A DNA stretch of 64,000 nucleotides from Gemmatimonadaceae bacterium (GTDB lineage: Bacteria > Gemmatimonadota > Gemmatimonadetes > Gemmatimonadales > Gemmatimonadaceae): contig DATFBY010000110.1 in the NCBI GenBank assembly GCA_035253585.1, positions 47,875 to 111,874 on the forward strand. Direction: 5' to 3'. Shown piece after piece: positions 29,305 through 56,958 of this stretch (position 1 is its first letter; each line of letters starts with the position of its first letter). Under the pieces are notes generated by a model. That model was not told the DNA's origin. It worked only from the letters and a program-made list of their open reading frames with translations, and did no database searches. The translations under genes and the position numbers were made by a program.

Positions 29305-29313
29305 TCGTTAGGC

Positions 29314-32744: not shown

Positions 32745-33296
32745 TCAGCTGTCGGCATTCGCCGACTCTTCCAGCGGTGCCACCACCGCGGTCCCACCAT
32801 GCATCTCGACGACGACGACGCTCTTCCACCGATCGGGCGCTTCGGCGTCGGCGCCTAACGGGCGCGCCAGCAGCTCGAACGACCGGTCGCCCCGGCGCAC
32901 CAGGACCTTGCCCGGCGCCCCGCGCGACAACGGAATCGTCACGCGCCCCGCGAGCCCGACGAAGCTTTGATCGCCCTCACGCGCGCCGGAGTCCGCGCGT
33001 CGCAAGTATTGGAACACGGCCGCCGACGTTCCGCCGAGCGCCAGGCCTACGGTGACTGCCAGCGCGAACGAGAGCCAACCCGATCCACTCCAGATCCAGC
33101 TGAGTCCCGCGCCGGTCGCTCCGAAACCGAAGAGGAAGTAGGTCAGCGTCCGCAGCGAGAGGAGCTTGAACCCCTCGTGATCGTGCGACGCGTCCGCATG
33201 CGCGACATCTCCTCCGTGATGCCCGACATCTCCGAGCACCGAGAAGAGCAGCAATCCTCCGCCAACGATGAGGGAGAAGAGGTAGAGGCCGAGCAT
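32745..33296 (-). CDS. NfeD-like membrane protein (partner of the flotillin)
   Basis: TM helices plus a C-terminal OB-fold-like segment GRVTIPLSRGAPGKVLV. It sits upstream of the SPFH gene, as is typical. Confidence 0.6.
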   Translation of the reverse strand: MLGLYLFSLIVGGGLLLFSVLGDVGHHGGDVAHADASHDHEGFKLLSLRTLTYFLFGFGATGAGLSWIWSGSGWLSFALAVTVGLALGGTSAAVFQYLRRADSGAREGDQSFVGLAGRVTIPLSRGAPGKVLVRRGDRSFELLARPLGADAEAPDRWKSVVVVEMHGGTAVVAPLEESANADS

Positions 33297-40524: not shown

Positions 40525-41714
40525 TCGCGGGCTCGTTCCAGCTCAGGCCGCGCGAAAAAGCGCTCGCCTAACGATTCGCACCCTCGAAGCGCGATCTCGA
40601 AGAGTGAGATGGCGGCAGTTGCCAGCGCGGGGTCACGCAGACCCTCCCGTCCGGCGCGAATCAGCAGTGCGTCATCCGCCTCGCCAAGCAGGTCGATCGC
40701 GTCGAGCAAGGCATCATGGTCGTATGTGATGCCCGCCACGAGCGCCAGCGGTGCCGCGTACCACCCTTCGGGGATCGCGTCCATCGCGCGTACTTCCAGA
40801 TACCCGCGCGGGCGAACATCGGGGAAGAGCGTGGACAGATGGATCTCGAAATCCTCGCTGGTGAGTCGGCCGGAACGTAGCGCGTCACGGAAGGTCGGAT
40901 ATCCCTCGTCGGGCGATCCCAGCATCATCATCGGGGCCGCGAGCGCAAAGCCCAGGTAGGTACAGGCGGGGTCACCGCTGTCGAAGATCCCCGTGCGCGC
41001 CGGATCGAGCTTTCGCCAGCAATCCGCGCGGACGCTACGACAGGAGCTATCAGCGCCGGCATAACGCGCCGAGTTGGCGAAGATCGCCGTGAGGTGCGGT
41101 GCAGCGGCATTCAATACACGCCACCGCAGGTCGGCGTCGGCGTCCAAGTCTACGCTCACCTGGAACGACGCCGTCTGCCGCATCATTCGCGCACCGTGCG
41201 GGCCGATGGTCTCGAAGTATTCCGCCATCCGCTCGTAGCGGGGCGCGCGAAGCTGCATTGGAACGTCGTGCGCGCGCGTGTCGGGATGGATGCCTAACGC
41301 GGCCAGCTCGACGTCCAAGCGATCGCCGGCTTCAATGAGGGCCGCGTTGGTGGCTCTCAGATGGGACAACAGTACGGTCACGCTGTCGCACGGTGGCGAG
41401 CTGTACTCGATCTGCCCGCCGGGCTCGAAGGTGATCGTGCCGCCATCCGGCAGCGCGAAGCACGGGGTGCCCTTGGCGGAGCAATGTTCCTTCCAACCGG
41501 CCCGCGTGCCCGCTTCACGGACGACTCCGAGCGAGGAAGGCCGTTCGGCGGCTGTCAACGGCACCGGTTGCCCCGTCGCGCGATCGAGCGGCAGCACCTC
41601 GACCTCGGCGCCGATGAGGCGCCGATGGGGGGGCGATCGGAAGAGCTGCTGACGCAGCTCGGCCGCCAGAACGCTCGTGTCGCGTGGAAGCGGCACGCCT
41701 GACTCGTTAGGCAC
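40437..41714 (-). CDS. GCS2-family carboxylate-amine ligase (EgtA-like γ-glutamylcysteine ligase)
   Basis: GCS2/YbdK-like fold. It lies immediately downstream of the egtB-egtD pair. Confidence 0.6.
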   Translation of the reverse strand: MPNESGVPLPRDTSVLAAELRQQLFRSPPHRRLIGAEVEVLPLDRATGQPVPLTAAERPSSLGVVREAGTRAGWKEHCSAKGTPCFALPDGGTITFEPGGQIEYSSPPCDSVTVLLSHLRATNAALIEAGDRLDVELAALGIHPDTRAHDVPMQLRAPRYERMAEYFETIGPHGARMMRQTASFQVSVDLDADADLRWRVLNAAAPHLTAIFANSARYAGADSSCRSVRADCWRKLDPARTGIFDSGDPACTYLGFALAAPMMMLGSPDEGYPTFRDALRSGRLTSEDFEIHLSTLFPDVRPRGYLEVRAMDAIPEGWYAAPLALVAGITYDHDALLDAIDLLGEADDALLIRAGREGLRDPALATAAISLFEIALRGCESLGERFFARPELERARDYFAAYTSRGRSPADDVPASTGRRSASVT

Positions 41715-42678
41715 GAGCCGCTATGGCCATGGCGAAGCGCCCCTCAGCGTCCGTCCACCAGTCGATCAGTCGCATTCCCGCATCGTGCAGCATCGACTCC
41801 ACCGCCGCGCGATCGTACTTGCAGCTGATCTCCGTGCGAATCGTCTCGCCGGCCTTGAACGCGACCAGGCCTATTCCGGGAATGCTCACTCGCTGGTCGA
41901 TGCGCGACACCAAATGCATCTCGATCCGGCGCAGCTTCGGCTCGAAGAACGCTCTATGCTCGAACGTGTCGACGTCGAAATCGGCGCCCAGCTCGCTGTT
42001 CAGCACGCGCAGGACGTTGCGATTGAACTCCGCCGTGACACCGCGTGAATCGTTGTAGGCGGCTTCGAGCACGGCGATGTCCTTGACCAGATCCGCGCCG
42101 AGGAGGAAGCGATCTTCTGGTCGCATCGCGTGCCGAACGTGGCCGAGGAGCTGGTTCGCGGACGCAGGGTCGAAGTTACCGATCGTGCTTCCGAGCAGCG
42201 CGAAGAGTGCCGGCCGCGGAATGGCTCGTGGCAGCTCGAATCGCGTGCCGATGTCCGCGATCCACGGGAGCACGTGCAGGTGCGGGTACGACCGGCGTAG
42301 GCGCGCGGCGGTCTCCTCCAGAAACTCGCGGCTGACATCGACCGGTACATAGAGACGCACGCACTCGTCGCGTTGCATGGCGTCGAGGATGATGCGAGTC
42401 TTTTCGGCAGCGCCGGCGCCGAGCTCCACCAACGACCTCGGTGCGAGCTTACTGACGTACCCGGGAATTCGTGCCTCGAGGATCGATCGCTCGGCGCGCG
42501 TGAGATAGTACTCCGGCAGCCGCGTGATCTCCTCGAACAGCAGCGAGCCGCGATGGTCGTAGAAGTATTTCGGCGGAAGCTCCTTCTGGGCGCGCGCGAG
42601 GCCAGCACGCACGTCGGCCAGCATCGCGGCGTCGGGGTGTCGTTGCGGCTGTCGCGCCGCGTGAGCGAGTCCGGTCAT
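41707..42678 (-). CDS. egtD: L-histidine Nα-methyltransferase EgtD
   Basis: PPKYFYDHRGSLLFEEITRLPEYYLTRAERSIL is the EgtD signature. SAM-MTase fold. Confidence 0.8.
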   Translation of the reverse strand: MTGLAHAARQPQRHPDAAMLADVRAGLARAQKELPPKYFYDHRGSLLFEEITRLPEYYLTRAERSILEARIPGYVSKLAPRSLVELGAGAAEKTRIILDAMQRDECVRLYVPVDVSREFLEETAARLRRSYPHLHVLPWIADIGTRFELPRAIPRPALFALLGSTIGNFDPASANQLLGHVRHAMRPEDRFLLGADLVKDIAVLEAAYNDSRGVTAEFNRNVLRVLNSELGADFDVDTFEHRAFFEPKLRRIEMHLVSRIDQRVSIPGIGLVAFKAGETIRTEISCKYDRAAVESMLHDAGMRLIDWWTDAEGRFAMAIAARA

Positions 42679-42687
42679 GAAAGCTCG

Positions 42688-44004
42688 TCAGGCGTCGCGT
42701 GCGCAGCGGAAGCCGCTGAAGATCTGCCGCCGAATCGGATAATCCCAGTTGCGGAACGTGTTCCGAATGGCGCCCGGGCGGGTGGCCCACGATCCGCCGC
42801 GCAAGACCTTGTAGTCACTACCGAAGAAGACCTCCGAGTACTCGCGATACGGAAACACCTCGAATCCCGGATAGCCTTGGAAGTCGCTCGACGTCCACTC
42901 CCATACGTCGCCGATCATCCCGTAGCAGCCGATCGGCGACCGGTTGAGCGGATAGGCGCCGATCGGCGCCGTCCCGAACCCGAGTTGGTCGAGATTCGCG
43001 TGTTGCTCCGTCGGGCGCTCGTCGCCCCAGGGATACTCGCGCTTCTCGCCCGTCACGGGATCCCACGACGCTGCCGCTTCCCACTCGGCTTCTGACGGAA
43101 GCCGCTTTTTTCGGAAGCGGGCGTAAGCTTCGGCCTCGTAGTACGTCACGTGACAGACGGGGTGCGACTGGTCCACGACATCATCGCGGTCAATGACACG
43201 GTTCCGCCAAGCGCCGTACGAGCGATACCAATACTTCGGAGCGATGGCCCCACTCTCCTGCAGCCACGCCCATCCGGCATCCGACCAGAATTCGCGCCGG
43301 CGATAACCGTCTGCCTCCATGAACTCGAGATAAGCGCCGTTCGACACCGGCGCTACGTCGATCAGGAACGGTGCGAGCCTGACGAGATGCGTCGGCCGCT
43401 CGTTGTCGTACGCCACGCTCCGATCGTTGGTGCCGATCTCTACGTCACCGCCCGGAAAGAGGACCATCGCGCCTGACTCGATGGTTGTCGTGCGCTCGGG
43501 TAGCGCGCGGCGACGTGGCGGCTGATACGGCGCACCTTGCTTCAGCTGCAGTGTCTGGAGGATCGTCTCGCCGTGCTGGTACTCGTGCTGGAGCACCATG
43601 TGGTAGACGTAGCCGTCGTGCAGCAACGCGTGCTCGTCGTCTAGCTCCACTCGATCGAAGCGATCGATCACGCGCGAGCGAATCTCCGCCATTAGCGCGG
43701 CACTCTCGTCGAGCGTCGGAAGACGGAGGACGCCGCGGACACGACGTGGATGCTCGAAGGGATTGAAGAGGCCGGGCATCTCGCCGAACTCGATCGGCCC
43801 ATCGAGGTTCCGCGTCAGCCACAATTCTTCGAAGTGCGCGATGTGCCCGAGGTCCCAGACGATGGGACTCATCAACGGATCGTGCTGGCGACGGAGATCA
43901 TCGTCGGACAGAGGGCTCACGAGGAGCATCGTCCGCGACCGCGCTTCCGAGAGAGCCGCGAGGATATCGGCTCTGGCGCTGCTTCGAATAGCGGTTCCAG
44001 TCAT
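42688..44004 (-). CDS. egtB: Ergothioneine sulfoxide synthase EgtB (DinB_2 + FGE-sulfatase domains)
   Basis: The N-terminal DinB_2 His-triad is in HMVLQHEYQHGE. The C-terminus has an FGE-sulfatase domain (RGGSWATRPG…). Start chosen at ATG 44004; the ORF-track extension overlaps the peptidase gene. Confidence 0.8.
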   Translation of the reverse strand: MTGTAIRSSARADILAALSEARSRTMLLVSPLSDDDLRRQHDPLMSPIVWDLGHIAHFEELWLTRNLDGPIEFGEMPGLFNPFEHPRRVRGVLRLPTLDESAALMAEIRSRVIDRFDRVELDDEHALLHDGYVYHMVLQHEYQHGETILQTLQLKQGAPYQPPRRRALPERTTTIESGAMVLFPGGDVEIGTNDRSVAYDNERPTHLVRLAPFLIDVAPVSNGAYLEFMEADGYRRREFWSDAGWAWLQESGAIAPKYWYRSYGAWRNRVIDRDDVVDQSHPVCHVTYYEAEAYARFRKKRLPSEAEWEAAASWDPVTGEKREYPWGDERPTEQHANLDQLGFGTAPIGAYPLNRSPIGCYGMIGDVWEWTSSDFQGYPGFEVFPYREYSEVFFGSDYKVLRGGSWATRPGAIRNTFRNWDYPIRRQIFSGFRCARDA

Positions 44005-44200
44005 GCGCCGCCTCCAAACGCAAGAACGAATCCACGCGGCGGCGCTGCATCCGCCGCTCCTAGAAGTGGCCGCCGACGGTCGACGCGTCAAGCGACAACT
44101 CCACGCCATTGAATTAGAAGTCGTTTTCTCGGCAAAAGGTTCCGCAAAAGCAAGCGGGCCGGCGCTCGCGTCGGCGCCGGCCCGCTTGCCTATCGGTGTG

Positions 44201-46003
44201 CTACTGTCGGCACTGTCCCTGGGGATCGGGCTTCGGTTTGTCGATCGCCACACGGTGATCGAGATTCCCGAAGCGAACCGCCAGGTCTTTCAAGAACGTC
44301 GAGACGCGTGCCAGCTGCGCGTAGTTGATGTACTGCGGCTCGTCGGTCACCTGGTGGTAGTCGACGTGATCGCCCGTACTCAAGAACACGACCGGAATGC
44401 CGTAGCGCGCGTACATGTAATGATCGCTTCGGCAGTAGTACTGCTCGGGATGGTTCGGGGCGTCGAACTGATAGTCGAACGTGAACGGTACAGGACTCGC
44501 CGCGCCGACTTGTTCGACGATGTCGCCGTATTCCGTCGAGAGACGACGTGACCCGAGCAGCTGGATGTACCCTGGCTTCCCCTCGGGAAGATCGCTCGGC
44601 ATGCCGCGGCCGATCATGTCTACGTTGAGCTGACCGACGATCGAATCACGGGGTACGGTCGGATTGTCGGTGAACCAACGCGCGCCAACGAGCCCTATCT
44701 CCTCCGAATCGTGCCACACGAACAGTAGCGACCGCTTCGGTCTGTTCGCCGCATCGGCGAAAAACTCGGCTACCTCGAGCAATCCCATGGAGCCCGAGGC
44801 ATCATCGTCGGCGCCGTTGTTCACCGAGTCGATTCGCGCCGGCCGAATGCGCCGCAGACTATCGACATTCACCCTGATCTGCGCCTGAGCTGCTGCGGAT
44901 GGCTGCGTGCCGCCATTCGCGTGCTTCAAACGCTGCACCTCGGCGTTGAACGCGCGAAGCGAATCGTGATCGACCGGCGTGCCGGTGAACCCGACGTGAT
45001 CACTGTGCGCGCCGAGTGCGACGTACTGCGCGCGAAGCGCGGCATCCGTACCCGGGAAGATCGCAATGACGTTACGCGCCGGCGCCTGCGTCTGCTGAAG
45101 AACGACGGCGCCGCGCAGCGTCTTCCCTATCGCGCCTGCCTTGAGCGTCGACGGGTCAGCGCCAAGGACTTTCGTTGCGGCCGCGGTGGTAAGGAACAGC
45201 GTGATCGGACCGGTGCCTGGCGGCGAGTCGGCGCGAAGGGCGAAGCTCGGGTTGCGCAGAAAGTCGACCAGCGGGGTCGACGCATGCTCCCAGCCGACTA
45301 GCGCGACACCAGCCGCTTCGCTGAAGCGGGGCGCGGCTTGGAAAGAGACCAACGGCAGCTGTGCCGGAGTGCCGGCGGGCGGTGCGGGCAACGTGAACAC
45401 GACGAGCTTTCCTTTCATCTGCGCCACGCTTGGCAGCGCCGTCGTATCCTGTGAGAGAGTGCCGCCGTAGATCGCTTGAACCCCGTCGAGCGAGCGACGA
45501 AGGAATCGCTGAGGACGCACAGCTCCGAAGTCGGTCCACCAACGCAGCGTACTGCCGTCGACGGCGACCGATGACGTCGTGTCGAACAAGCGCCTAACGA
45601 TTGGCACCGCCTGGAAGAACGTGCCGTTCTCGCCCGCTGGTGTCGCACCGAGACGCCGCAGCTCGGCCGCGATGTAGGCGGTTCCCTTCTCGCCACCCGC
45701 GGTTCCCGTGCGCCGGCCCATCATCGAGTCATCAGCGAAGAGATACACGCGACTCATGAGGTCGCCGGGCGTGATCGCCGTCGACGTCGGCTTCGGCGTG
45801 TATTTCCGTGGCAGCGTGTCGCCGGGAAGGATCTCAGCAGATGCTGGCGTCGGCGTAGCAGCGGCGGCGCCTGTTGCCGGCGCTACTGGTGCGTCCGTGC
45901 TCGAGGGCGACTTCGCGCACGCGGCAAACAAGATGGCCGTCACGAGCATCTGCAATGCAAGCGAGTACCGCCCGCGAAGAGGCGGATGAGTCCGGCTGTC
46001 CAT
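44201..46003 (-). CDS. M28-family peptidase lipoprotein with PA domain
   Basis: Lipobox LFAAC. The M28 zinc ligands are in DNGADDDASG and HDSEEIGLVG. Confidence 0.7.
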   Translation of the reverse strand: MDSRTHPPLRGRYSLALQMLVTAILFAACAKSPSSTDAPVAPATGAAAATPTPASAEILPGDTLPRKYTPKPTSTAITPGDLMSRVYLFADDSMMGRRTGTAGGEKGTAYIAAELRRLGATPAGENGTFFQAVPIVRRLFDTTSSVAVDGSTLRWWTDFGAVRPQRFLRRSLDGVQAIYGGTLSQDTTALPSVAQMKGKLVVFTLPAPPAGTPAQLPLVSFQAAPRFSEAAGVALVGWEHASTPLVDFLRNPSFALRADSPPGTGPITLFLTTAAATKVLGADPSTLKAGAIGKTLRGAVVLQQTQAPARNVIAIFPGTDAALRAQYVALGAHSDHVGFTGTPVDHDSLRAFNAEVQRLKHANGGTQPSAAAQAQIRVNVDSLRRIRPARIDSVNNGADDDASGSMGLLEVAEFFADAANRPKRSLLFVWHDSEEIGLVGARWFTDNPTVPRDSIVGQLNVDMIGRGMPSDLPEGKPGYIQLLGSRRLSTEYGDIVEQVGAASPVPFTFDYQFDAPNHPEQYYCRSDHYMYARYGIPVVFLSTGDHVDYHQVTDEPQYINYAQLARVSTFLKDLAVRFGNLDHRVAIDKPKPDPQGQCRQ

Positions 46004-46034
46004 GTAGAGCCTTTGAAGAGGTACGAGAGCGCGA

Positions 46035-46829
46035 CTAACGAGTCTGTCCGAGCTGTTCCTCGAGACGCTCGCGATAGCCACGGCTCAACTTGAGCCGCGT
46101 GCCGTCACGCAAGATGACAATGTACTCACCCGAGAACCACGGCTGCATCTCCTTGACCCGATCGAGGTTCACGATCGTGGACCGGTGGATGCGCGCGAAA
46201 TGGGTGGGGTCGAGCCGCTCGGCGAGATTGCTGATCGTCTCACGGATGACGTGCGACTCGCGGCCGACGTGCAACCGCACGTAGTTGGCGGCCGCTTCTA
46301 CCCAGTCGATCTCCGCCGTCTTCACGAAGAAGATCTTGCCGCCCGAGCGGATCATGAGACGATCGAGATAACGGTCCCCGCCTGCTGCGCCGTCGCCGGC
46401 GCGCGCCTGAGCGGCGAGCTGCTCGAGCAGTGTGATCAGCCGCTGATTCTGATCGGAAGCTTGCGCGCGCTCGAGCTGATCGCGTGCGCGCTGAAAGGCG
46501 CTCCGGAAGCGCTCGGGATCGAAGGGCTTCACCAGGTAGTCCAGCGCGTGCACCTCGAACGCTCGCACCGCGTATTGGTCGTACGCCGTGGTGAAGATGA
46601 CGAGCGGAACCTGCTGCGGATCGAGCGCCTGGAGCACGCCGAAGCCGTCGATCTCCGGCATCTGCACGTCGAGGAACACGAGATCCGGCTGGTGCTGGCG
46701 GATGGTGGCGATCGCTTCCCGTCCATCGCTGCACTCGGCAACGACGTCGACATCGGGTTCCGCTTTCAAGAGCCGGAGAATTCGACGTCGTGCGAGCGGT
46801 TCGTCGTCCACCACCACCGTCTTGATCAT
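46035..46829 (-). CDS. LytTR-family response regulator
   Basis: Receiver domain (VVVDDE…FLDVQMP) plus a C-terminal LytTR DNA-binding domain. Confidence 0.8.
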   Translation of the reverse strand: MIKTVVVDDEPLARRRILRLLKAEPDVDVVAECSDGREAIATIRQHQPDLVFLDVQMPEIDGFGVLQALDPQQVPLVIFTTAYDQYAVRAFEVHALDYLVKPFDPERFRSAFQRARDQLERAQASDQNQRLITLLEQLAAQARAGDGAAGGDRYLDRLMIRSGGKIFFVKTAEIDWVEAAANYVRLHVGRESHVIRETISNLAERLDPTHFARIHRSTIVNLDRVKEMQPWFSGEYIVILRDGTRLKLSRGYRERLEEQLGQTR

Positions 46830-48094
46830 CGGATGCGATTCTCCGCCGAAGCACCGTTCTCGGCCGCCAGGGCCACCCGCAGAGGAATCTCGATCGACAC
46901 GACGGCGCCGCCGTCCTCATCCGCAGCCAGACTGAACCGATGCGCGTCGCCGTACAGCTGCCGCAGCCGCGCCCGCGTGTTCCCGATTCCGACGCCCTCG
47001 CGAATCTCGCCGCGCCGAAGGCCGACGCCGTTGTCGCGCACTTCGAGCTGGAGCCGGCCGTCGCGCGCCAGCGCAAAGATTCCGACACGCCCGGGAGCCG
47101 CGCGCGGTGACAGCCCGTGGCGGATGGAGTTCTCCACCAGCGGCTGGAGCACGAAGGTCGGCACGCAGGCGTCGAGCGTTTGCGGCTCGACCTGTACGTC
47201 GACCGAGAGACGGTCGCGGAAACGCGTCTGCTCGATCTCCACGTAGGCGCGAAGGAAATCGAGCTCCTGCTTCAGCGTGATTTCCTGCGATCCCGCCTGA
47301 TCGAGCGACATGCGCAGCAAACTTCCAAGACGCGTGATGGTCCTGTCGGCCGCCTCCGGGTTCTCGTGTATGAGCTCCGAGATCGCGTTCAGTGTGTTGA
47401 ATAGGAAGTGCGGCTGAAGCTGCATCTTGAGCAGCTGGAGCTCGGCGGTCGCCAGGTCGTGCGATAGCTCCGACGCGCGATATTGTCGCTCGCGGAACCA
47501 GCGGTAGTAGTTCACCGCGTGAGTGGCGGCGAGGATCACGAAGTAGCTGAAGACGTTGACGTCGAGCTGGAAGAGAAGCATCGCGTCGAACGGCAGCTGC
47601 CCGATTCCGACCAGTGGATACACCGCCCGGTCGATCGAGACATCGATCACGCACAGCGCCAGCGCAACGACCAGATGCACTGGGACACGCCACATCCAGT
47701 TGCTTCGGCCGATGCGCAAGCGGTGCGCAAGCCAGATCACCAGTGGCGTGAACGCGGCCCAGATCCAGGCGGTAGTGAGGCCGAGCGGCAGGATCTGACG
47801 CATCGGCGGCGCGGGAGCGTCGATCGCGTGCAGATAGAGAATCGTCTGCTGCGCCGAGAAGACGCCGTAGGCGTTCCACGTCAGGAAGATCGCCAGTGCC
47901 CACTTCCATCGGCCAAATGTCCGGCCCGTTTGGCGTCCGATGGGCCGCTCCGCTTCCACTTCGGCGATGGCCGCCGGATCGGGCGCGCGGCGTGACACGA
48001 TCCCGCCTGGCGGAGTCATGTTGTCGTCGTACACTTGCCCCGTATGCGTCGCGGTGGCGTCGCCGACGGGCGCTTCCTCCAATTGCTTCACCAT
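46826..48094 (-). CDS. LytS/YehU-type sensor histidine kinase
   Basis: Polytopic N-terminus. The His_kinase motif is in QLQPHFLFNTLN. HATPase_c at the C-terminus. ATGA overlap with the regulator gene. Confidence 0.75.
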   Translation of the reverse strand: MVKQLEEAPVGDATATHTGQVYDDNMTPPGGIVSRRAPDPAAIAEVEAERPIGRQTGRTFGRWKWALAIFLTWNAYGVFSAQQTILYLHAIDAPAPPMRQILPLGLTTAWIWAAFTPLVIWLAHRLRIGRSNWMWRVPVHLVVALALCVIDVSIDRAVYPLVGIGQLPFDAMLLFQLDVNVFSYFVILAATHAVNYYRWFRERQYRASELSHDLATAELQLLKMQLQPHFLFNTLNAISELIHENPEAADRTITRLGSLLRMSLDQAGSQEITLKQELDFLRAYVEIEQTRFRDRLSVDVQVEPQTLDACVPTFVLQPLVENSIRHGLSPRAAPGRVGIFALARDGRLQLEVRDNGVGLRRGEIREGVGIGNTRARLRQLYGDAHRFSLAADEDGGAVVSIEIPLRVALAAENGASAENRIR

Positions 48095-48322
48095 TCAACT
48101 CCTTGCAGTGCGCACACGTGCTTCGGCACGAGGGCGATCGGCTTGGCTACAGAGTGTTCCGGGTGTCCGATTCCGGGCAACTCAAATGGGACGAGCAGCA
48201 GAACCCGGGGGACGAAAGGAAATCGCCCCAGCGACCGCCCCGAGTCCTCTTGTCCGCGCTGGGCACCGTCCCTAATCTGCGCCGCGACGCGCTCGTCGTC
48301 TCCCCCTCTATCACTGTAATCG

Positions 48323-49141
48323 ATGCGGTATTCACGTTGGTGGACGCCTCTCGCGCCGAGGCTCGCGCGCCTCGTCGTGCTGTGCGTCGCGGTCGCGTCG
48401 TGCTCCGATAGCCGCTCCACGGGACCTCGTGGCGCGCCCGACCGCGATGGCACACCCGATCTCATCGTCGACGAGGGCGTTCTCGAGTCTTCGGTTCGCT
48501 TCGCTACCGAGACGATCTCGCAGGGGTCGTGCACGTCCGTCGAGGGAAACATCCCGCCGGGCACCTACCGTACGATGCGCTTCAGTGTGTCGACACCGAA
48601 CATCGGCGACGCTGACGTTTTCATCGGTGATCCCCGCGGCCACATCGATCCGAACGGTGACGGTGACTTCGCCGATAGCGACGGGCTCTTCGACTTCGCC
48701 GCCTGTCATAACCACTTTCACTACCGCCGGTACGCCACCTACGAGTTGTTCCAAGTAAATTCAGACAACAGCCTCGGACCCGCGATGCGTGCGAGCAAGA
48801 TCGGTTTCTGCATGCAGGACTCGGAGCCGTATCGTGACGGCATCGGCCGCTCGGAATGGGTATATCGCCAGTGCGGCTCGCCGACTCAGGCTGGCAATCA
48901 GGGCTTGGCAACCGGTTGGACCGACATCTACGATCGCACGCTCGACGGACAGTTCTTTCTGCTGAACGATCCCCGCGCGCCGGTGCCGCCCGGCAGATAC
49001 GCGTTGCGCGTGACAGTCAATCCTGGGTTTGTGCGCGACCCGGGCGATCCTTGTCCGGTGGTGGTGGACGGTTTGTGCCACGTGTTCGCCGAGAGCAATT
49101 ACTCGAATAACGTCGCCGAAATCCGCCTGACGATTCAGTGA
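48323..49141 (+). CDS. Lysyl-oxidase-like copper amine oxidase domain lipoprotein
   Basis: The motif FAACHNHFHYRRYATYELF matches the C-H-x-H-x-H copper site of the LOX catalytic domain. Lipobox VAVASC. Confidence 0.5.
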   Translation: MRYSRWWTPLAPRLARLVVLCVAVASCSDSRSTGPRGAPDRDGTPDLIVDEGVLESSVRFATETISQGSCTSVEGNIPPGTYRTMRFSVSTPNIGDADVFIGDPRGHIDPNGDGDFADSDGLFDFAACHNHFHYRRYATYELFQVNSDNSLGPAMRASKIGFCMQDSEPYRDGIGRSEWVYRQCGSPTQAGNQGLATGWTDIYDRTLDGQFFLLNDPRAPVPPGRYALRVTVNPGFVRDPGDPCPVVVDGLCHVFAESNYSNNVAEIRLTIQ

Positions 49142-49443
49142 GCAAGCGCATGTCGAAGTCGTATGTAGAGCGACGCACAGTCTCTAGGAAAACGCCATTG
49201 GACGGAAAGCTGGAGATCTCCGGCGGGGCAGCCAAGCGCCTCACCGAGTCGACGCCTTTGGCCGTGGATTTGAACGGGGTGCGCGGCCAGGGTACGCTCG
49301 TTTCAATGCCGTGTACCTGCCGCGACGTCGCGCACGTGCACTATTTCCTCGAATCTGAGTCGTTCCGGACGCTCTCGCCTGAGACCGAGGTCGAAGTTCG
49401 AATTTCGGGCGACGGCTCGAGCGCCGTGGTGACGACGGTCTAG
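49138..49443 (+). CDS. Hypothetical 101-aa protein, translationally coupled to the LOX-like gene
   Basis: GTGA overlap with the upstream stop. No recognisable domain. Confidence 0.3.
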   Translation: MSKRMSKSYVERRTVSRKTPLDGKLEISGGAAKRLTESTPLAVDLNGVRGQGTLVSMPCTCRDVAHVHYFLESESFRTLSPETEVEVRISGDGSSAVVTTV

Positions 49444-49447
49444 CCAC

Positions 49448-49735
49448 ATGGCTCAGCCCGACCGTCGCCGACGGAACGGCGTCATCGCCGCTGTAATCGT
49501 CGCGCTGTTCGTCGGCTATCTGCTGTGGTCGACGCTCGGTGCGCAGAAGGCATCGTGCGAAGTGTGCGTGTCGTTCGCTGGTGGAAATAACTGCGCCACC
49601 GCGTCGGCGTCCGATACGATCGAGGCATTGCAATCGGCGCAGTCCACGGCCTGTGGCCCATTGGCGCGGAGCATGGATGCCTCGATCGCGTGCGCCAATC
49701 GCCGCCCCACCCGCTCCCGGTGCTCGCTGCGCTGA
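49448..49735 (+). CDS. Hypothetical small membrane-anchored Cys-rich protein
   Basis: N-terminal TM helix. Composition only. Confidence 0.3.
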   Translation: MAQPDRRRRNGVIAAVIVALFVGYLLWSTLGAQKASCEVCVSFAGGNNCATASASDTIEALQSAQSTACGPLARSMDASIACANRRPTRSRCSLR

Positions 49736-49739
49736 CTCG

Positions 49740-51320
49740 TTAGGCAGCGCCCGCCTCGCGCCGCGGGCGCGCGACAGGTCTCACCCATCGCTCCACCAGC
49801 GCCAGACCTCCGTCGACCAGAAGTGCGAGCAGCGCTGCGGGGATCGCCCCCGACAGAATCATGCGCGTATCCGACAGCGCTAGGCCGGCGACGATCGGGT
49901 CGCCGAGACCGCCGGCGCCGATGAATGCCGCCAGCGTTGCCGTGCCGACCGTAATCACCGCCGCAGTGCGAATTCCGGCCATGATCACCGGCGCTGCAAG
50001 AGGGAGACGCACATGCCGGAGGACCTGCGCCGGCGTCATTCCGAGCGAAAGCGCCGCGTCGGCGGCGGCCGGATCGGCATCGCGAACGCCGGTATATGTA
50101 TTCCGGACGATCGGGTAGAGCGCGTAGAGAAAGAGCGCCACCAACGCCGGCACCACGCCGATGCCCAGCAGCGGGATCATGAACGCGAGAAGCGCGATCC
50201 CCGGCAGTGTCTGGAGCAGCCCGACGGTGCGGATTACCGACTCCGCTCCCTTCCCCAGGCGCTCGAGCATCACGCCGAGCGGGAGAGCGATGACGACCGC
50301 GGCCGCCAGCGAGATCACCACGAGAAGGAGATGCCGCCGGGTGAGCGACAGCAGGTCGCTGCGCCGGGCCACGAGGTAGGTGCCTAACGATTCGCGCTTC
50401 CGATCGATCGCGCGCGATACAGTCGAGGTGCCCATGAGCGAAAGATCGCGGAGCGCATCCGAAGCGACGCGCGCCACCGGCTCGTTGTCGACCTCCACAC
50501 GCCGGTTGAGCGCCCGCATGCGCTCCTCATCCAACCGGCCGCTCAGCTCGGACAGAATGGCGGCCACCTGCGGAACGTCGCGCTGCACCGCCGGCCCCAG
50601 AAGCGCAGCTGCCTGATACGGGGGAAAGAAGCGCTTGTCATCGTCTAGGACTACGAGGTCGTAACGCGCGATCAAACCATCAGTCGAGTAGCCATCGATG
50701 ACGTCCACCTCGCCTTCGGCGAGCGCCTGATACTTCACGGCCGGCACCAACGAGCGAACTTCACGTGGCGCGACGGTGTAGACGCGTCGCAATCCGGGCA
50801 GCCCGTCTGCACGTCCGATGAAGTCGGGCGTGAACCCGGCTCGCAGTCGGCGGGCCACGCGCCCCAAATCGCTCAGCGTGCGCAGGGAGAGCGAATCGGC
50901 GGTCGCGCGTCGTACCGCGATCGCATAGGTATTCTCGAATCCGAGTGGAGGCAGCCAGCGGACGCCGAATCTGGCGCTGAAGTCGCGGACGACACGGGCA
51001 TAAACGGCATCTGGATCAGGCTCCGGCTGTTCGCCCAGGATGGCGATGAGGCCGGTGCCCGTGTACTCCGGGTAGACGTCGATCGCATTCGTGCGAAGTG
51101 CGCGAAACGCGATCTCGGTGGCCCCGAGCCCGAGACGACGGTCGACCCTGAGCCCGCGGACCTCGAGCAGCTGGGCGAACATCTCCGCCAGCAGATACGA
51201 CTCGCCAAAGGGTTTGGATGCGACGACCACGGTGCGCTTCGACGGTTGGGCGCCTAACGAGTGCGCAACACCGAACAGCGTCGCTCCGACGAGAGCCACC
51301 CAACGCGCGAGCCGCGTCAT
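49740..51320 (-). CDS. ABC transporter, fused substrate-binding (OpuAC/OpuBC-like) and permease domains
   Basis: The N-terminal glycine-betaine-type SBP is followed by a BPD_transp_1 permease half. The gene ends with a TAA stop supplied by the GACTCGTTAGGCA motif. Confidence 0.75.
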   Translation of the reverse strand: MTRLARWVALVGATLFGVAHSLGAQPSKRTVVVASKPFGESYLLAEMFAQLLEVRGLRVDRRLGLGATEIAFRALRTNAIDVYPEYTGTGLIAILGEQPEPDPDAVYARVVRDFSARFGVRWLPPLGFENTYAIAVRRATADSLSLRTLSDLGRVARRLRAGFTPDFIGRADGLPGLRRVYTVAPREVRSLVPAVKYQALAEGEVDVIDGYSTDGLIARYDLVVLDDDKRFFPPYQAAALLGPAVQRDVPQVAAILSELSGRLDEERMRALNRRVEVDNEPVARVASDALRDLSLMGTSTVSRAIDRKRESLGTYLVARRSDLLSLTRRHLLLVVISLAAAVVIALPLGVMLERLGKGAESVIRTVGLLQTLPGIALLAFMIPLLGIGVVPALVALFLYALYPIVRNTYTGVRDADPAAADAALSLGMTPAQVLRHVRLPLAAPVIMAGIRTAAVITVGTATLAAFIGAGGLGDPIVAGLALSDTRMILSGAIPAALLALLVDGGLALVERWVRPVARPRREAGAA

Positions 51321-52063
51321 TGTATTCCGGCGCGCTCGAGGAGTGAGGCGACGTAATCCGTCGCCGGCCGGTCGATGCAGTCATCGGCCGTGCCGATCTG
51401 CTCGAGTCGTCCGCGACGCATGACCGCGATACGGTCGGCGAGCATGATCGCCTCGCGCAGGTCGTGCGTCACCAGTACCGAGCTCACGAAAACGTTGCGT
51501 CGAAGGTCCGCAAACGACTGCTGAAGCTCTCCGCGTGTGATGGCGTCGAGCGCGCCGAAGGGCTCGTCGAGGAGCAGGAGATCGGGTGACGCCGCGAGCG
51601 CTCTGGCGATCGCCACGCGCTGGCGCTGGCCGCCGGACAGCTCGTGGGGCGCACGCGCCGCCAGCTCCTCGATCCCAACGAGTGCCAGCGCCGAGCGACC
51701 GCGGGCGAGCGGGTCCGTCATGTCGCGGAGCCAGGGAACGAGCGCCGCGTTCCGCTCCACCGACCAATGCGGAAGTAGCCCGCCGTCCTGCGGCACGTAG
51801 CCGATGCGTCGCCGCAGGGAGACGGGGTCGAGAGCGCGCGTGTCGGCGCCGTCGACCAGGATCCGTCCGTCGTCAGGCGCAATCATCCGATTGAAGCAGC
51901 GGAGCAAGGTGGTCTTCCCCGATCCGCTCTCACCGACCAGCGCCATGCACTCGCCACGCTCGATGGCCAGGGAGACGCGATCGAGCGCGACCGCCTCGCC
52001 GAAGCGCTTGGTGACCTGGTCAGCCACCAGCGCGAAGGGTGCCTGCGCTTGCGACGTCGTCAA
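51317..52063 (-). CDS. ABC transporter ATP-binding protein (Opu-type)
   Basis: Walker A GESGSGKTT, signature LSGGQRQR, and Walker B LLLDEPFGALD are present. Confidence 0.8.
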   Translation of the reverse strand: MTTSQAQAPFALVADQVTKRFGEAVALDRVSLAIERGECMALVGESGSGKTTLLRCFNRMIAPDDGRILVDGADTRALDPVSLRRRIGYVPQDGGLLPHWSVERNAALVPWLRDMTDPLARGRSALALVGIEELAARAPHELSGGQRQRVAIARALAASPDLLLLDEPFGALDAITRGELQQSFADLRRNVFVSSVLVTHDLREAIMLADRIAVMRRGRLEQIGTADDCIDRPATDYVASLLERAGIQ

Positions 52064-53787
52064 TGGGGGAGCCGCCGCTCCGGACGATACGGAAAAACGT
52101 CCATGATCTCACCGGCGCGCTGCCGCTCCTGCATGTCTCGCCAGAAGCGGATCGTGAGGAGATCGGCGTGCTCGTCCAGAAACTCGTCGCGCAATCGCCC
52201 CGGCGGAATCAGAAAAGCCGCGAACTCCTCCGGGAATACGTCGTGCTCGCCGACGTAATACCACGGCTCGGCCGACATCTCTTCGTCCGGATGGACGGCC
52301 TGAGGCAGCTCTCGGAAGACGCAGTCGGTGAGCAGCGTCAGCTCGTCGTAATCGTAGAAGATCACACGCTCGTGACGCGAGACTCCGAAGTTCTTGAGGA
52401 GCATGTCGCCCGTGAAGATGTTCGAGCCGGCCAGCTCCTTGATCGCACGGCCATAGTCGCGGATCGCGTGACGCGCGGCATCGTCGTCGACATCGCGGAG
52501 ATACAGATTGAGCGGCGTGACCCGGCGCTCCGTGTACAGGTGCGTGATCACCACGTGATCGCCGTCCACCTTGACGCTGCCGCCGGCATCGCGTTGCAGG
52601 TGCTCGAGCAACGGCCGGCTGAACGAATCGCGGCGGAATTCGAGGTACTGAAATTCTTGCGCGTCGGCCAATCGCCCGACTCGGTCGCGAAGAAAGACGA
52701 AGTGATACTTCTCCATGACCGCGCGGCGTGTCGTCTTCTTCGGCTGGCCGAAGCTGTCCTTGATGATCTTGAACACGACGTTGAACGACGGGAAGGTGAA
52801 AACGCTCATCACCAAGCCCTGATCGCCTTCGGCGAAGTCGAATTGCGCGTCCGAGTCCGCGAGGTGCTGCACCAGCGCGCGGTACAGCTCGGCCTTTCCG
52901 TGTCGGTTGAAGCCGATGGCGGTGTAGAGTTCGTCCACCCGCTTGAGTGGCATGATCGACGCCAGGAAGTCCACCATCGCGCGCGGCTCTGAGACATCGA
53001 CGCGGAAGTAACGCCAGCTGAAGCCGAACACCACGCTCGCTTCGTCGGACGTCATCAACACGGCGTCGACGAAGATTCCGCGCTCATCGTGCAGCACCGC
53101 GAGAATCAGGGGGATGATCTCGCCATCGCGCACGATGCGTCCCACGAGGTATACGCCTTTGTTGCGGTAGAACGGTGCATCGATGATCTCGAGGCAAAAT
53201 CGGCCGCTTCCGCTAGGGTCCAGTCGCTTCTGTACGATCCGTGCGACCGACGCGGCGTCGCCGTCCAGATCGAGAAATGGCGCGTTCCATCCTGGATGCG
53301 TGACGATTTCGCGTACCAGCTGAGGCTCGAATGCATCACGCTCGTAGACGCGGTAGACTCGCGCGCCAGGCGCCGCCTGCGCCATCAGCTCCTTCGCCGT
53401 GAACTCGATCTCCGGCTCGACGCCGACCACGGTGAAGAACCGCCGCGTGACTGAATTGAAGAAGGTGCGCGCCAGCTCACCGTCCGGTCTGTCGGCCACG
53501 AGCGCCGCATAGCGCGCCTTCACGTCGCGCCAGAGTGCGGGCGATGGCGTGGCGCCGAAGGCATCGGCAAGCCGCAGTCGAATGTCGGTGAGATATTCCT
53601 TGTACAGAGCGAGTCGATCGGTGGCGTCCTGCTGCGCACCGTGCCAGTCGCGCGTCTCGAAGCGATGCTTCGCCAGGCAGGTGAGCTCGCGAAACCGTCG
53701 CTGATACGCCATGTACGTCTCGTAAATCAGCGAAACGGCGTCCTCGGCGGTCGTGCTCGACGTCGCGCGCGCTCGGTTGCCCTTCAT
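52060..53787 (-). CDS. aceK: Isocitrate dehydrogenase kinase/phosphatase AceK
   Basis: Full-length (575 aa) AceK-like sequence. TTGA overlap with the ABC ATPase gene. Confidence 0.85.
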
Positions 53788-53830
53788 AGCCCTCGGGCTA
53801 ATTTTGTACGCCTCATCTTCAGCTCATCCA

Positions 53831-55087
53831 ATGACGACTTCCACGATGCCCGAATACAAGGCGCTCACCCCGCCGGCCGAGGGCGAGCGCATCGAGATGC
53901 GCGACGGGCGGCTCATGGTGCCCGATCGTCCGATCGTTCCGTTCATCGAGGGCGACGGCACCGGTCCCGACATTTGGCGCGCCTCACAAGTGGTGTTCGA
54001 CGGCGCGGTGAAGAAGGCGTACGGCGCCAAGCGGCGCATCGTGTGGTTCGAGGTATTGGCCGGCGAGAAGGCGAAGAACCGCCTCGACAGCTGGCTCCCT
54101 GAGGACACGCTCCTCGCCATTGCGCACCACCTCGTGGCGATCAAGGGTCCGCTCACGACGCCGGTGGGCGGCGGCTTCCGATCCCTCAACGTAGCGCTTC
54201 GGCAGCAGCTCGACCTTTACGCTTGCGTACGCCCCGTGCGCTGGTTCGAGGGCGTACCCTCTCCCGTGAAGGCGCCGCAGGACGTCGACATGGTGATCTT
54301 CCGGGAAAACACCGAAGACATCTACGCCGGCATCGAGTATCGCGCCAGAAGCGAAGAGGCGGATCGGCTCATTCGGTTCCTGCAGACGGAGCTCGGGGCC
54401 AAGAGCATTCGTTTCCCCGCGACCAGCGGCGTCGGCATCAAGCCGATCTCAGAAGAGGGGACCAAGCGGCTCGTCCGCGCGGCACTCGAATACGCCGTGA
54501 GAAACAAGCGCTCGAACGTGACCTTGGTGCACAAGGGCAACATCATGAAGTTCACCGAAGGTGCGTTCCGCGATTGGGGCTACCAGCTGGCGCGCGACGA
54601 GTACGGCGCGACGGAGCTGGACGGCGGCCCGTGGCTCAAGCTTCCCAGCGGTGTCGTCATCAAGGACGTGATCGCCGACGCATTCCTTCAGCAGATTCTC
54701 CTTCGGCCGAAAGAGTACGACGTCATCGCCACTCCCAACCTCAACGGCGACTACATCTCCGATGCCCTGGCGGCGCAGGTGGGCGGGATCGGCATCGCGC
54801 CCGGAGCAAACATCAATTACGTGACCGGTCATGCCGTCTTCGAGGCGACACACGGCACCGCGCCGAAGTACGCCGGACAAGACAAGGTGAACCCGGGCTC
54901 GGTGATTCTCTCGGGCGAGATGATGCTTCGTTACATGGGATGGGACGATGCCGCCGATCTCATCATCCGATCGCTCGAGCGCACGATCGAGCAAAAGCGC
55001 GTGACGTACGACTTCGAGCGACTCATGCCGGGGTCGACGCTGCTCAAGACCAGCGAGTTCGCCGCGGCGATGGTCGAGAACATGTAG
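53831..55087 (+). CDS. icd: NADP-dependent isocitrate dehydrogenase (AceK-regulated type)
   Basis: Homodimeric ICDH sequence. Divergent from aceK. Start chosen at ATG 53831. Confidence 0.9.
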
Positions 55088-55110
55088 ACTCGTTAGGCAC
55101 CGGGCAAACG

Positions 55111-55140
55111 AAAAGGGCGCGCCCCCTCCGGCGCGCCCTT
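55111..55140 (-). terminator. Intrinsic terminator hairpin: 11-bp stem AAGGGCGCGCC/GGCGCGCCCTT with loop CCCTCC, between convergent icd and Plug-domain genes
   Basis: Read directly. The U-tract is on the minus-strand side. Confidence 0.55.
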
Positions 55141-55156
55141 GGCGTTCAGACGGTAT

Positions 55157-55957
55157 TCAGCCCGTCGCGTCTTTCGGCTTCTTGTCCTGCGGCTTCTGAG
55201 TCTCCTTCTCCGCCTCGAGTCGATCCGCCGCCGTGCTCCGTGTCCAGATCGCAATCACGCCGCACCCCGCGTTCATTCGATTCAGCTCCGGCGGAGTCTC
55301 CGCCGGTCCGCGGTAGACCTCGATCGCCTGGATCTCGCTGACCGCCAGGTGATCGAGCTCGAACATCGGAACCACACGACCGTCGAGCCAGTAAAGCGGA
55401 CGGCAACGGCTTCGGCCCATGACGACGATGTTGCTCCCGAAATTCGTGCTCATGATTCGAACGCCGGGCGCGGTGCGGAGCAGCTCGCTCGGACGCGATG
55501 GCGAGCGTCGCTCGATGTCCTTCCGCGTGTAGAACACACCGTAGTACCTGGCGCGCCTGGCTTCGAACTCGGCCATCGGCTCCACGGGTGGGACGCCGGT
55601 CTCGGTCGTCGTCACAGTGTCGAGCACGGCAGGAATCAGAAGCAGCTCGACGTTGATCTCGCGATGCTCCCCTGCGCGCACGACCATCTCCAGCTCGATC
55701 GGCTGGAAGCCGAAGCGGCGCACTTCCATCACGATCTCGCCGATCGGGACCGCCGACAGCCGATATTCCCCCCGCTCGTTCGACTGCGCACGGGAAGCCG
55801 ATCCTCGGATGCGGATCTCCGCGGACTGAAGTCCGAATCCACTCGAGTCGTGCACCACGCCAGAGATCGACGATGGCGTTGCCTGCGCGGTGAGGGCGCT
55901 GCCCGCCACCGCGTCCGAGAGCTGCGCCGCGAACAGCATGGCGCCGCCCACGAGCAT
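55157..55957 (-). CDS. Secreted CarboxypepD_reg-like + TonB-dependent-receptor Plug domain protein, with no β-barrel
   Basis: Signal peptide. A Plug-like C-terminus (ELLRTAPGV…YWLDGRVV…IEVYRGPAETP…GCGVIAIWTR) is present. Start at ATG 55957. Confidence 0.55.
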   Translation of the reverse strand: MLVGGAMLFAAQLSDAVAGSALTAQATPSSISGVVHDSSGFGLQSAEIRIRGSASRAQSNERGEYRLSAVPIGEIVMEVRRFGFQPIELEMVVRAGEHREINVELLLIPAVLDTVTTTETGVPPVEPMAEFEARRARYYGVFYTRKDIERRSPSRPSELLRTAPGVRIMSTNFGSNIVVMGRSRCRPLYWLDGRVVPMFELDHLAVSEIQAIEVYRGPAETPPELNRMNAGCGVIAIWTRSTAADRLEAEKETQKPQDKKPKDATG

Positions 55958-56009
55958 CCGACTCGTTAGGCAGCCGGGTTGGCGACGGCGTGCACGCGTG
56001 GTCATTGTG

Positions 56010-56780: not shown

Positions 56781-56958
56781 CGACTACTAGCAACACGGAG
56801 GGCAAATAGGCCAGTCGTCAGGCCCTTTACATATATGGCATCCGCATTTATCGGGCACAATGCGCCTGGGACCGGCGCCCGGTCGCGCGGGACATCCAGA
56901 CCGTGTAACACCGTCAGCGCCCATCCGCTGGGACGTCTCGTCCCAGCGCACGCTATCC

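Follow-up and report, generated by a model that had tools for sequence, protein, structure and literature searches.

A hyper-abundant, non-palindromic DNA word in the core genome of an uncultured Gemmatimonadales bacterium

A 13-nucleotide sequence, GACTCGTTAGGCA, recurs at gene boundaries in a 64 kb stretch of DNA from an uncultured member of the Gemmatimonadota, order Gemmatimonadales (contig DATFBY010000110.1, positions 47,875 to 111,874; hereafter the window, numbered from its first base). We found that the 13-mer represents a hyper-abundant, lineage-specific DNA word, with the core CGTYAGGC, in its full-length form free of constraint. The word is present on both strands, in spacers, and in every reading frame in which it creates no internal stop. 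About a quarter of the sites able to encode the word carry it; it overrides codon preference, and some of its positions are shared with a sister species. That it is, as a whole, a genome word acting at the DNA level seems to us highly probable. Combined with accumulation by an uptake-type drive, this is the explanation that we favour overall, with a confidence only somewhat better than even. That the word functions like a DNA uptake sequence, a proposal made by analogy with known systems, is put forward more tentatively, as a possibility that we hold at below even.

Results

Source of the sequence

The best matches of the window icd gene in GTDB are 76-82% identical. Near-identical contigs (99.4-99.8%) are present in two soil assemblies of the ENA, and flanks taken from ENA contigs add 15.5 kb to the window, so that about 80 kb were inspected in total. 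Every copy of the word is kept in these assemblies, with a single nucleotide polymorphism, in a flank; divergence at this level of identity is too small to inform on polymorphism of the word. Because the copies are identical across three independent assemblies of the species, and the word is also found in a sister species, an assembly artefact is excluded. The region is ordinary core genome, with a che/frz-like cluster, ileS, lspA, ftsH, folP, cdaA and aceA/aceB, followed by egtB/egtD, an opu transporter, aceK and icd. Gene starts and stop-codon tallies are those of our own gene calls (54 called genes).

Consensus and abundance of the word

A logo built on 52 copies gives the consensus a-C-T-C-G-T-Y-A-G-G-C-R. 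Conservation is confined to positions -3 to +8, with nothing else conserved within ±40 nt, and the word differs from its own reverse complement, that is, it is not palindromic. The core CGTYAGGC is present 52 times in the 64 kb, versus 6.4 copies expected, or about once per 1.2 kb. The longer CTCGTYAGGC has 27 copies where less than one is expected, and its two forms are the T-variant 10-mer CTCGTTAGGC (11 copies, both strands, versus 0.09 expected) and the C-variant CTCGTCAGGC (16 copies). CGTTAGGC occurs 26 times versus 0.49 expected, and TCGTTAGGC 19 times versus 0.13. GTTAGGC is the most over-represented 7-mer of the window (33 versus 1.1 expected), and half of all TTAG tetramers fall within CGTTAGGC.

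The core positions are strict, and variants differing by one base are barely present. Only the Y position is degenerate, with T and C in a ratio of 26:26. Where Y is free to vary the ratio is 10:11, even though third codon positions in this genome are strongly G+C-rich. Apart from one inverted pair, described below, the minimum distance between copies is 127 nt. No Rfam match was found in the window. A scan of viral contigs with ACTCGTTAGGCAGC returned 60 loci with one 14-mer match each; very short loci aside, none came near the density of the core word in the window.

Occupancy of coding sites

Most copies, 43 of the 52 (83%), are intragenic, six are intergenic and three lie on stop codons; among the 10-mers CTCGTYAGGC, 21 of 27 are intragenic. 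Inside genes, the word accounts for a large part of the rare codons: 14 of the 25 in-frame TTA codons, 8 of 59 AGG and 9 of 73 CCT belong to it. At conserved amino-acid positions, relatives encode the same residues with common codons. At 29832, for instance, the window reads GAC-GTC-AGG-CTC and a relative GAT-GTG-AGA-CTC, both encoding DVRL, and at 34400 the window CTC-GTT-AGG-CGG corresponds to GTC-GTA-CGC-CGC in a relative. No insertion is seen at the sites in alignments of orthologues; substitution is thus how the word arises.

The word avoids frames in which it would interrupt a gene with a stop. In the frame with a potential in-frame TAG (CGT-TAG), the T-variant is absent and all five copies are of the C-variant, and the frame GCC-TRA is occupied solely at three real stop codons, at gene ends.

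To quantify occupancy, we collected from the called genes all peptide sites where a choice of synonymous codons would allow the core, and counted those that have it; 14 loci from relatives served as controls. In the sense orientation, the word was used at 14 of 50 [APST]-L-G sites (controls, 0/164), 5 of 9 R-Q-A sites (3/24), 8 of 42 x-V-R-x sites (0/148) and 3 of 29 [APST]-S-G sites (0/109). In the antisense orientation, it was used at 4 of 20 [CGRS]-L-T sites (4/81) and 9 of 27 P-[DN]-x sites (2/128). Overall occupancy was thus 30/130 (23%) in sense and 13/47 (28%) in antisense, which does not differ (Fisher p=0.55).

Raw counts are skewed, with 34 copies on the minus and 18 on the plus strand, or 39 versus 18 when flanks are included (p=0.0075). 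This skew follows from nearly all genes being on the minus strand and from sense-compatible peptides being about three times commoner. Copies free of coding constraint, intergenic or on stop codons, go the opposite way (7 plus versus 2 minus), the window sampling one replichore only. Because it is symmetric in orientation, is not tied to a frame and prevails over codon preference, the word is a feature of double-stranded DNA, rather than a peptide, an mRNA signal, or a signal of the Chi or KOPS (FtsK-orienting polar sequences) kind.

Distribution among relatives

A sister species was found through its isoleucyl-tRNA synthetase, IleRS (82% amino-acid identity). Its locus (L129; 23.3 kb, 69% G+C) is syntenic with positions 5154-28653 of the window, at 82% DNA identity, and contains 12 copies of the word (0.51 per kb) with the same flanking consensus and a T:C ratio at Y of 3:9. 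When these were compared with the 18 copies of the syntenic part of the window, nine were shared in position, nine were found in the window only and three in L129 only. Against a baseline of 0.30 for the retention of 8-mers, such sharing is significant seen from the L129 side (9/12, binomial p=0.0015) and borderline from the window side (9/18, p=0.055). Sites that are not shared are two or three mostly synonymous changes apart (TTA versus CTG, for example). At two shared sites, Y toggles between T and C. At one of them, 22021-22028, which corresponds to 16768 in L129 (reverse-complemented), TTA (Leu) becomes TCA (Ser) with no change in the other seven bases. The word is retained there while the residue changes: constraint at this site is stronger on the DNA word than on the residue.

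Outside the sister species, variant forms were found in a few lineages. The locus L010 (JBDTOH010000086.1) has a dialect-like word, [G/C]CGTTAGGC, in the T-variant only, with 8 copies in 14 kb versus 0.17 expected. Its coding copies are all of one class: the six are nCG-TTA-GGC in sense (6 of 22 compatible sites), versus 0/20 in the other frames, a pattern that differs from the symmetric one of the window, in a small sample. L009 carries three CTCGTCAGGC in 15 kb, C-variant only, and L130 three C-variant core copies (CGTCAGGC, of which one is a full CTCGTCAGGC) in 5.6 kb.

Elsewhere the word was at background. Loci L002-L008 and L124, as well as about 300 kb of other high-G+C loci, have about 0.05-0.1 copies per kb, and L131 is also devoid of the word. 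In a tree of icd, the window groups with lineages lacking the word, a weak, single-gene result. In a metagenome scan with AceK, all relatives recovered were distant (64% identity at most) and lacked the word; they serve only as negative controls. A closer relative recovered with FtsH (L123, 98% amino-acid identity, 4 kb) stops just short of the nearest copy in the window.

Copies at gene boundaries

The initial annotation of this DNA had reported five copies of the 13-mer with a preference for gene boundaries. Four exact copies of GACTCGTTAGGCA were found, all on the plus strand, at 41701..41713, 49734..49746, 55087..55099 and 55960..55972. The fifth, AACTCGTTAGGCA at 16959..16971 (+), has one mismatch and lies within the minus-strand ileS gene, antisense, as CCT-AAC (Pro-Asn), and the coordinates first assigned to the five were off by 0-2 nt. 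An identical context had been attributed to three copies; GACTCGTTAGGCAG is in fact common only to 49734 and 55960, the copies at 41701 and 55087 ending in C, and what 16960, 49735 and 55961 have in common is ACTCGTTAGGCAG.

We confirmed that two of these copies provide stop codons. The minus-strand egtD (41707-42678) takes its TAA stop from the TTA at 41707-41709, and an OpuAC/permease gene, also on the minus strand (49740-51320), from the TTA at 49740-49742. TAA is indeed the least-used stop of the region, but not as rare as had been noted, with 9 TAA versus 14 TAG and 31 TGA. A C-variant copy that had been overlooked, CTCGTCAGGC at 42684..42693 (+), provides one more: its TCA (42688-42690) is the TGA stop of the minus-strand egtB, and it sits in the 9-nt spacer ahead of the ATG of egtD (42678). 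The 41701 copy, together with an upstream GCCTGAC, makes up the inverted pair of the window (41697-41712). This is the only such pair, and a partner half-site, whose search had been proposed, was not found within ±40 nt of the copies. The copy on the Opu stop codon lies in a C-terminal tail (…RRAGAA*, 49740-49790) that is not found in L130 and L131. In these two relatives, at 74% DNA identity, the copy is absent and the gene ends GCG-TGA-GCC.

The first base of the 55087 copy is the final base of the icd TAG stop (55085-55087), with the 10-mer starting at 55089, and the copy is placed between icd and a hairpin at 55113-55140. The hairpin had been correctly described. However, the T-tract of the hairpin is on the minus strand, which means that it terminates the convergent Plug-domain gene (CarboxypepD_reg/Plug, 55157-55957) and not icd. 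The word is outside the hairpin, and the suggestion of a terminator-paired signal is not supported. The position of the 55960 copy in the leader of the same minus-strand gene was verified: it lies 3-15 nt upstream of the ATG (55957).

Four more copies are intergenic. CGTTAGGC at 29306..29313 (+) fills the spacer from the LemA stop (29304) to the GTG start of an M48 peptidase gene (29314), CGTCAGGC is found at 31131..31138 (-) and 56816..56823 (+), and a core copy at 62971-62978 (-) belongs to a triple GTYAGGC array, 62961-62988, which adjoins the ATG of gene 62214-62960. Very short spacers between a stop and a start are filled by copies at 29306, 41705, 42686 and 62971. The array itself is made of tandem direct GTYAGGC units on the minus strand with a period of 10-11 nt (AGTCAGGCA, CTCGTCAGGCA, TTGTTAGGC), and the gene that it abuts has a methyltransferase fold.

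Taken together, 9 of the 52 core copies are intergenic or on a stop codon, versus 8.6% of bases. The preference for boundaries is real but weak, about twofold (p=0.03); the large majority of copies are intragenic, and those at boundaries have no fixed orientation or distance relative to starts, stops or terminators. It is more marked for the degenerate full-length form GACTCGTYAGGCR, with four of its six copies at boundaries (p=7e-4, post hoc) and the other two (5472 and 8069) in TPR genes. This excess is most simply accounted for by relaxed constraint: only spacers leave all 12-13 positions of the consensus free, and one of the six frames reads GCC-TRA-CG, which is possible only as an Ala-stop gene end. 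Occurrence at boundaries is largely a by-product, and the word is not a gene-boundary signal. A ribosome-binding role for the ACGAG ahead of two ATGs was also considered and rejected, as other boundary copies are oppositely oriented.

Discussion

What kind of feature is the word?

A genuine gene-boundary signal, whether it acted by supplying stop codons, in partnership with terminators, in translational coupling or ribosome binding, or as a regulator site, appears very unlikely to us. All four exact 13-mers and four of six GACTCGTYAGGCR do lie at boundaries, where three copies supply stops and several fill very short stop-start spacers. Against this stand the 43 of 52 cores and 21 of 27 10-mers inside genes, the use of both orientations at varied distances from starts, stops and terminators, the hairpin near 55087 that serves the gene of the opposite strand and excludes the word, and the Opu stop-codon copy that is missing from two relatives; nor is there an Rfam match. 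A polar signal of chromosome maintenance, either a Chi-like hotspot or an orienting sequence like KOPS or AIMS (architecture imparting sequences), has a comparably slim chance of being correct. Such signals are, like the word, short, over-represented and scattered over core genes, and the raw 34:18 skew places the excess on the G-rich strand of a window whose GC skew is uniformly negative. But the skew vanishes when counted per compatible peptide site (23% in sense versus 28% in antisense), and the intergenic and stop-codon copies reverse it, although the nearly uniform minus-strand orientation of the window genes means that gene orientation and replication direction are not fully separable here. 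Moreover, Chi sites, which are G-rich and 5-8 nt long, show only moderate over-representation, and Chi, KOPS and AIMS in general are strand-polar with respect to replication, at most 8 nt long and far less over-represented, whereas the word is symmetric in orientation once coding opportunity is considered.

The evidence from reading frames bears on an explanation at the level of peptide, codon context or mRNA (a Ser-Leu-Gly motif, a TTA-GGC codon pair, a toxin-cleavage or frameshift site), which we regard as extremely unlikely. Sense nCG-TTA-GGC is the largest class in the window (14 copies) and the sole coding class in L010 (6/22, versus 0/20 in other frames). In the window, however, five other classes of frame and orientation (RQA, xVRx, xSG, xLT and PD/PN), with unrelated peptides, show similar occupancy, six copies are intergenic, and at 22021 the change from Leu to Ser keeps the word and not the peptide. 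A resemblance of GTT-AGG-C to the Ty1 frameshift site CUU-AGG-C was dismissed as coincidental, the word being found in all frames and on both strands. Remnants of short mobile elements, such as miniature inverted-repeat transposable elements (MITE) or repetitive extragenic palindromic (REP) sequences, or an artefact of assembly, would account for the repetition itself and for nothing more, and can practically be set aside. REP and MITE are extragenic, at least 20 nt long, similar in their flanks and gained by insertion, while only 11-12 nt are conserved here, flanks are dissimilar, 83% of copies are intragenic, and orthologues differ by substitutions without insertions. An artefact is contradicted by the same copies in three independent assemblies and by the word in the sister species. 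This leaves two suggestions of the initial annotation, an uptake signal or a protein-binding site, as the most plausible class of explanation.

Uptake or highly iterated palindrome?

Within the reading of a DNA-level word, the copies would be recognised by a sequence-specific DNA-binding protein. DNA fragments bearing the word would be preferentially taken up or recombined, causing new copies to spread through the population, and accumulation would thus be due to drive rather than to a local function, site by site. The closest working model is that of the DNA uptake sequences (DUS) of Neisseriaceae (GCCGTCTGAA and its dialects) and the uptake signal sequences (USS) of Pasteurellaceae (AAGTGCGGT, ACAAGCGGT). 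DUS and USS are 9-10 nt words with hundreds to thousands of copies, in genes and spacers, that avoid stop-containing frames, and a 2025 survey lists uptake sequences for these two proteobacterial families only (bioRxiv 10.1101/2025.10.24.684340). About half of their copies lie in terminators. Like them, the window word is short and non-palindromic, with a consensus of 10-12 nt and about 0.4-0.8 copies per kb on both strands. It is intragenic in stop-avoiding frames as well as in spacers, enriched where constraint is low, and has its fullest flanks outside genes. It is also common to related species, with dialect-like variants elsewhere (the [G/C]CGTTAGGC of L010), and resides in core housekeeping genes. 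It differs from DUS and USS by an unrelated sequence, by the phylum, and by one two-fold degenerate position in its core.

Several observations weigh against an uptake-type explanation. Uptake sequences known so far are conserved family-wide, whereas the word is patchy among Gemmatimonadales, the closest GTDB relatives by icd (L002, L003 and L006) being without it; such a distribution is more easily reconciled with a word linked to a mobile methyltransferase or repair gene than with uptake. The window contains no terminator-forming inverted pairs: its single inverted pair, GCCTGAC-TC-GTTAGGC at 41697-41712 at the egtD stop, is not a terminator. Spacing of the copies is indistinguishable from random placement (coefficient of variation 0.95). 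No competence, pilus, DNA-methyltransferase or vsr gene was found in the window and its flanks, and all statistics are drawn from these ~80 kb of one genome and 23 kb of the sister genome. The MglA/MglB and Frz-like cluster hints at pilus-based motility only. To our knowledge, natural transformation is not known in Gemmatimonadota, and we found no literature on the word itself, nor any linking this phylum with uptake sequences or transformation.

The patchy distribution leads to the comparison with HIP1 (GCGATCGC), the highly iterated palindrome (HIP) of cyanobacteria, and with the alternate HIPs, whose function is still debated (PMC5861425, PMC4390886). The window word could likewise be targeted by a DNA methyltransferase, orphan or mobile, or by sequence-specific repair, or play a part in chromosome or nucleoid organisation, with no uptake involved. 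In one variant, it would be made and kept by methylation-dependent, biased mismatch repair, or selected for structure. The parallels are numerous: roughly 50- to 150-fold over-representation, which falls in the reported span of HIP1 (15- to 300-fold), and sites within open reading frames that are conserved between genomes, as for HIP1 (PMC5861425); about one copy per gene, in several frames; and a lineage-specific, patchy presence with replacement by variant words, which resembles alternate HIPs tracking specific methyltransferases (PMC4390886). In addition, the C/T alternation at the lone degenerate position is a transition, as is characteristic of deaminated 5-methylcytosine, and lineages vary in T:C, with 26:26 in the window and 3:9 in L129, L010 having T alone and L009 and L130 C alone. 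However, all described HIPs are palindromic, HIP1-type words being G+C-rich octamers, and the word is not palindromic. The lack of a DNA-methyltransferase or vsr gene in about 80 kb counts for little, this being too little sequence to carry weight against a HIP1-like origin. A repair bias at a single position cannot by itself build a word of 8-11 nt through two or three synonymous changes per site, and the T-variant is no decay product, since it equals the C-variant where Y is free, against G+C pressure. Overall, a HIP1-like origin, the principal competitor of the uptake model, seems rather unlikely to us.

Significance

The word is a new example of the hyper-abundant words that sign a genome, and is kept apart from DUS and USS by the lack of terminator pairs and from HIP by not being palindromic. 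Whether it is a true uptake or self-recognition sequence, in a naturally transformable soil lineage where sequence-specific uptake evolved independently, is on balance doubtful. If this were so, it would be the third sequence-specific uptake system known and the first outside Proteobacteria, and the words of L010 and L009 would be its dialects. More generally, a third, unrelated and non-palindromic word from a phylum without a genetic system would provide an independent case for how such words arise, be it by uptake drive, methylation-linked repair or selection for chromosome structure. In practice, the word is a sharp binning marker for contigs of the lineage and flags foreign DNA, which is expected to lack it; should the organism be brought into culture, the word could also inform the design of DNA for transformation. 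For annotation, it accounts for some Ala-TAA gene ends and for the odd codons TTA, AGG and CCT.

Inventory of intragenic copies

Besides the ileS copy at 16959, the copies inside genes are as follows. At the left end of the window, CGTTAGGC at 557..564 (-) lies in a TPR/DUF4388 gene, in sense, as nCG-TTA-GGC (Leu-Gly). It is followed by CTCGTTAGGC at 686..695 (-), in sense, as TCG-TTA-GGC (Ser-Leu-Gly), and by CTCGTCAGGC at 1355..1364 (+), antisense, as CCT-GAC (Pro-Asp). Two TPR genes harbour the full-length degenerate consensus GACTCGTCAGGCG, at 5472..5484 (-), where it is conserved in L129, and at 8069..8081 (-), in a gene of 903 aa. Between them, CTCGTCAGGC at 5675..5684 (+) is coding, antisense, and present in the window but not in L129, and CGTTAGGC at 7191..7198 (-) reads CCG-TTA-GGC where L129 has CCG-CTG-GGC for the same amino acids. 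CGTCAGGC at 8794..8801 (-), read CGT-CAG-GCg (Arg-Gln-Ala), is conserved in L129.

Three copies fall in cheA: CTCGTTAGGC at 11180..11189 (-), in sense with a TTA Leu codon, and CTCGTCAGGC at 11471..11480 (+), antisense, are both conserved in L129, and CTCGTCAGGC at 11757..11766 (+), antisense, is found in the window only. lspA has CGTTAGGC at 14603..14610 (+), antisense, as CTA-ACG. A second ileS copy, CGTTAGGC at 17614..17621 (-), reads GTT-AGG and its L129 counterpart GTC-AGG, a synonymous toggle of Y. CGTCAGGC at 19326..19333 (-), in a PNP_UDP_1 gene, is conserved in L129. Further on, CGTTAGGC at 21097..21104 (-) reads TCG-TTA-GGC (TCG-CTG-GGG in L129), CGTCAGGC at 21528..21535 (+) is coding, antisense and restricted to the window, and CGTTAGGC at 21673..21680 (-), in sense with a TTA codon, has one base different in L129. 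CTCGTCAGGC at 21800..21809 (-), in sense (Arg-Gln-Ala), is conserved in L129, as is CTCGTTAGGC at 22890..22899 (-) in cdaA (Ser-Leu-Gly); between these two, CGTTAGGC at 22021..22028 (-) is the copy with the Leu to Ser change, from GCG-TTA-GGC to GCG-TCA-GGC in L129.

In the M48 gene, CGTCAGGC is present antisense at 29685..29692 (-), as CCT-GAC where relatives have CCG-GAT, and in sense at 29832..29839 (+), as GTC-AGG where relatives have GTG-AGA or GTG-CGG for the same Val-Arg. CGTTAGGC at 32853..32860 (-) is in sense with a TTA codon. The isocitrate lyase gene carries CTCGTTAGGC at 34400..34409 (-), as CTC-GTT-AGG-CGG (LVRR), and the malate synthase gene CTCGTCAGGC at 34911..34920 (+), antisense, and at 36225..36234 (-), in sense (Arg-Gln-Ala). 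A plus-strand gene, 37562-40075, has CTCGTCAGGC in sense at 38368..38377 (+) and two antisense copies, CGTCAGGC at 39274..39281 (-) and CTCGTTAGGC at 39628..39637 (-; Pro-Asn). CGTTAGGC at 40566..40573 (-) and 41292..41299 (-) are both in sense with TTA codons.

Sense copies continue with CTCGTCAGGC at 43377..43386 (-) in egtB and CGTTAGGC at 45592..45599 (-) in an M28 peptidase gene. CGTCAGGC at 49125..49132 (-) is antisense to a plus-strand lysyl oxidase gene. The Opu permease gene contains CGTTAGGC at 50382..50389 (-) and CTCGTTAGGC at 51252..51261 (-), each in sense with a TTA codon. An ABC ATPase gene has CGTCAGGC antisense at 51871..51878 (+), as CCT-GAC, the Pro codon of relatives being CCA, CCG or CCC. 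Towards the right end, CTCGTCAGGC is in sense at 58742..58751 (-) in a repeat-protein gene and at 60665..60674 (-) and 60877..60886 (-; TCA Ser) in an FMO-like gene. Last come CGTTAGGC at 62382..62389 (-), in sense (Ser-Leu-Gly) in the methyltransferase gene, and CGTTAGGC at 63952..63959 (-), coding, in sense.

Other features of the region

Within the che/frz-like cluster, a 714-aa protein encoded at 1762-3906 (-) has two Bac_DnaA-type ATPase domains and neither the N- nor the C-terminal domain of DnaA. Its neighbours are that cluster, with an Arf/MglA-like GTPase and a Robl_LC7 (MglB-like) protein, and DUF4388/PatA_N-TPR proteins (3908-4540, 5073-5420, 140-1804 and 6222-10088). A large, low-complexity gene at 56959-59442 (-), with repeat periods of 15, 30, 45 and 90 nt and HC2/extensin-like matches in Pfam, differs in length between the window and the ENA strain assemblies.

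Finally, the window contains perfect long hairpins with stems made of tandem heptamers. Three of them (12316-12406, 16815-16907 and 24365-24462) consist of (TCGAGAT)x4, a loop of about 35 nt and (ATCTCGA)x4, with an RNAfold free energy (dG) of -66 to -70 kcal/mol; the longer one at 17686-17894 pairs (GGGAAGC)n with (GCTTCCC)n, at about -135 kcal/mol. Two lie in spacers (cheA/cheY and ftsH/folP) and two are translated in frame within variable loops of ileS. Neither L129 nor the other relatives checked have these hairpins, and the ENA contigs break at the copy at 16.85-16.99 kb. The loop of the cheA/cheY hairpin (12300-12420) carries CTCGTTAGGT, one mismatch from the word.

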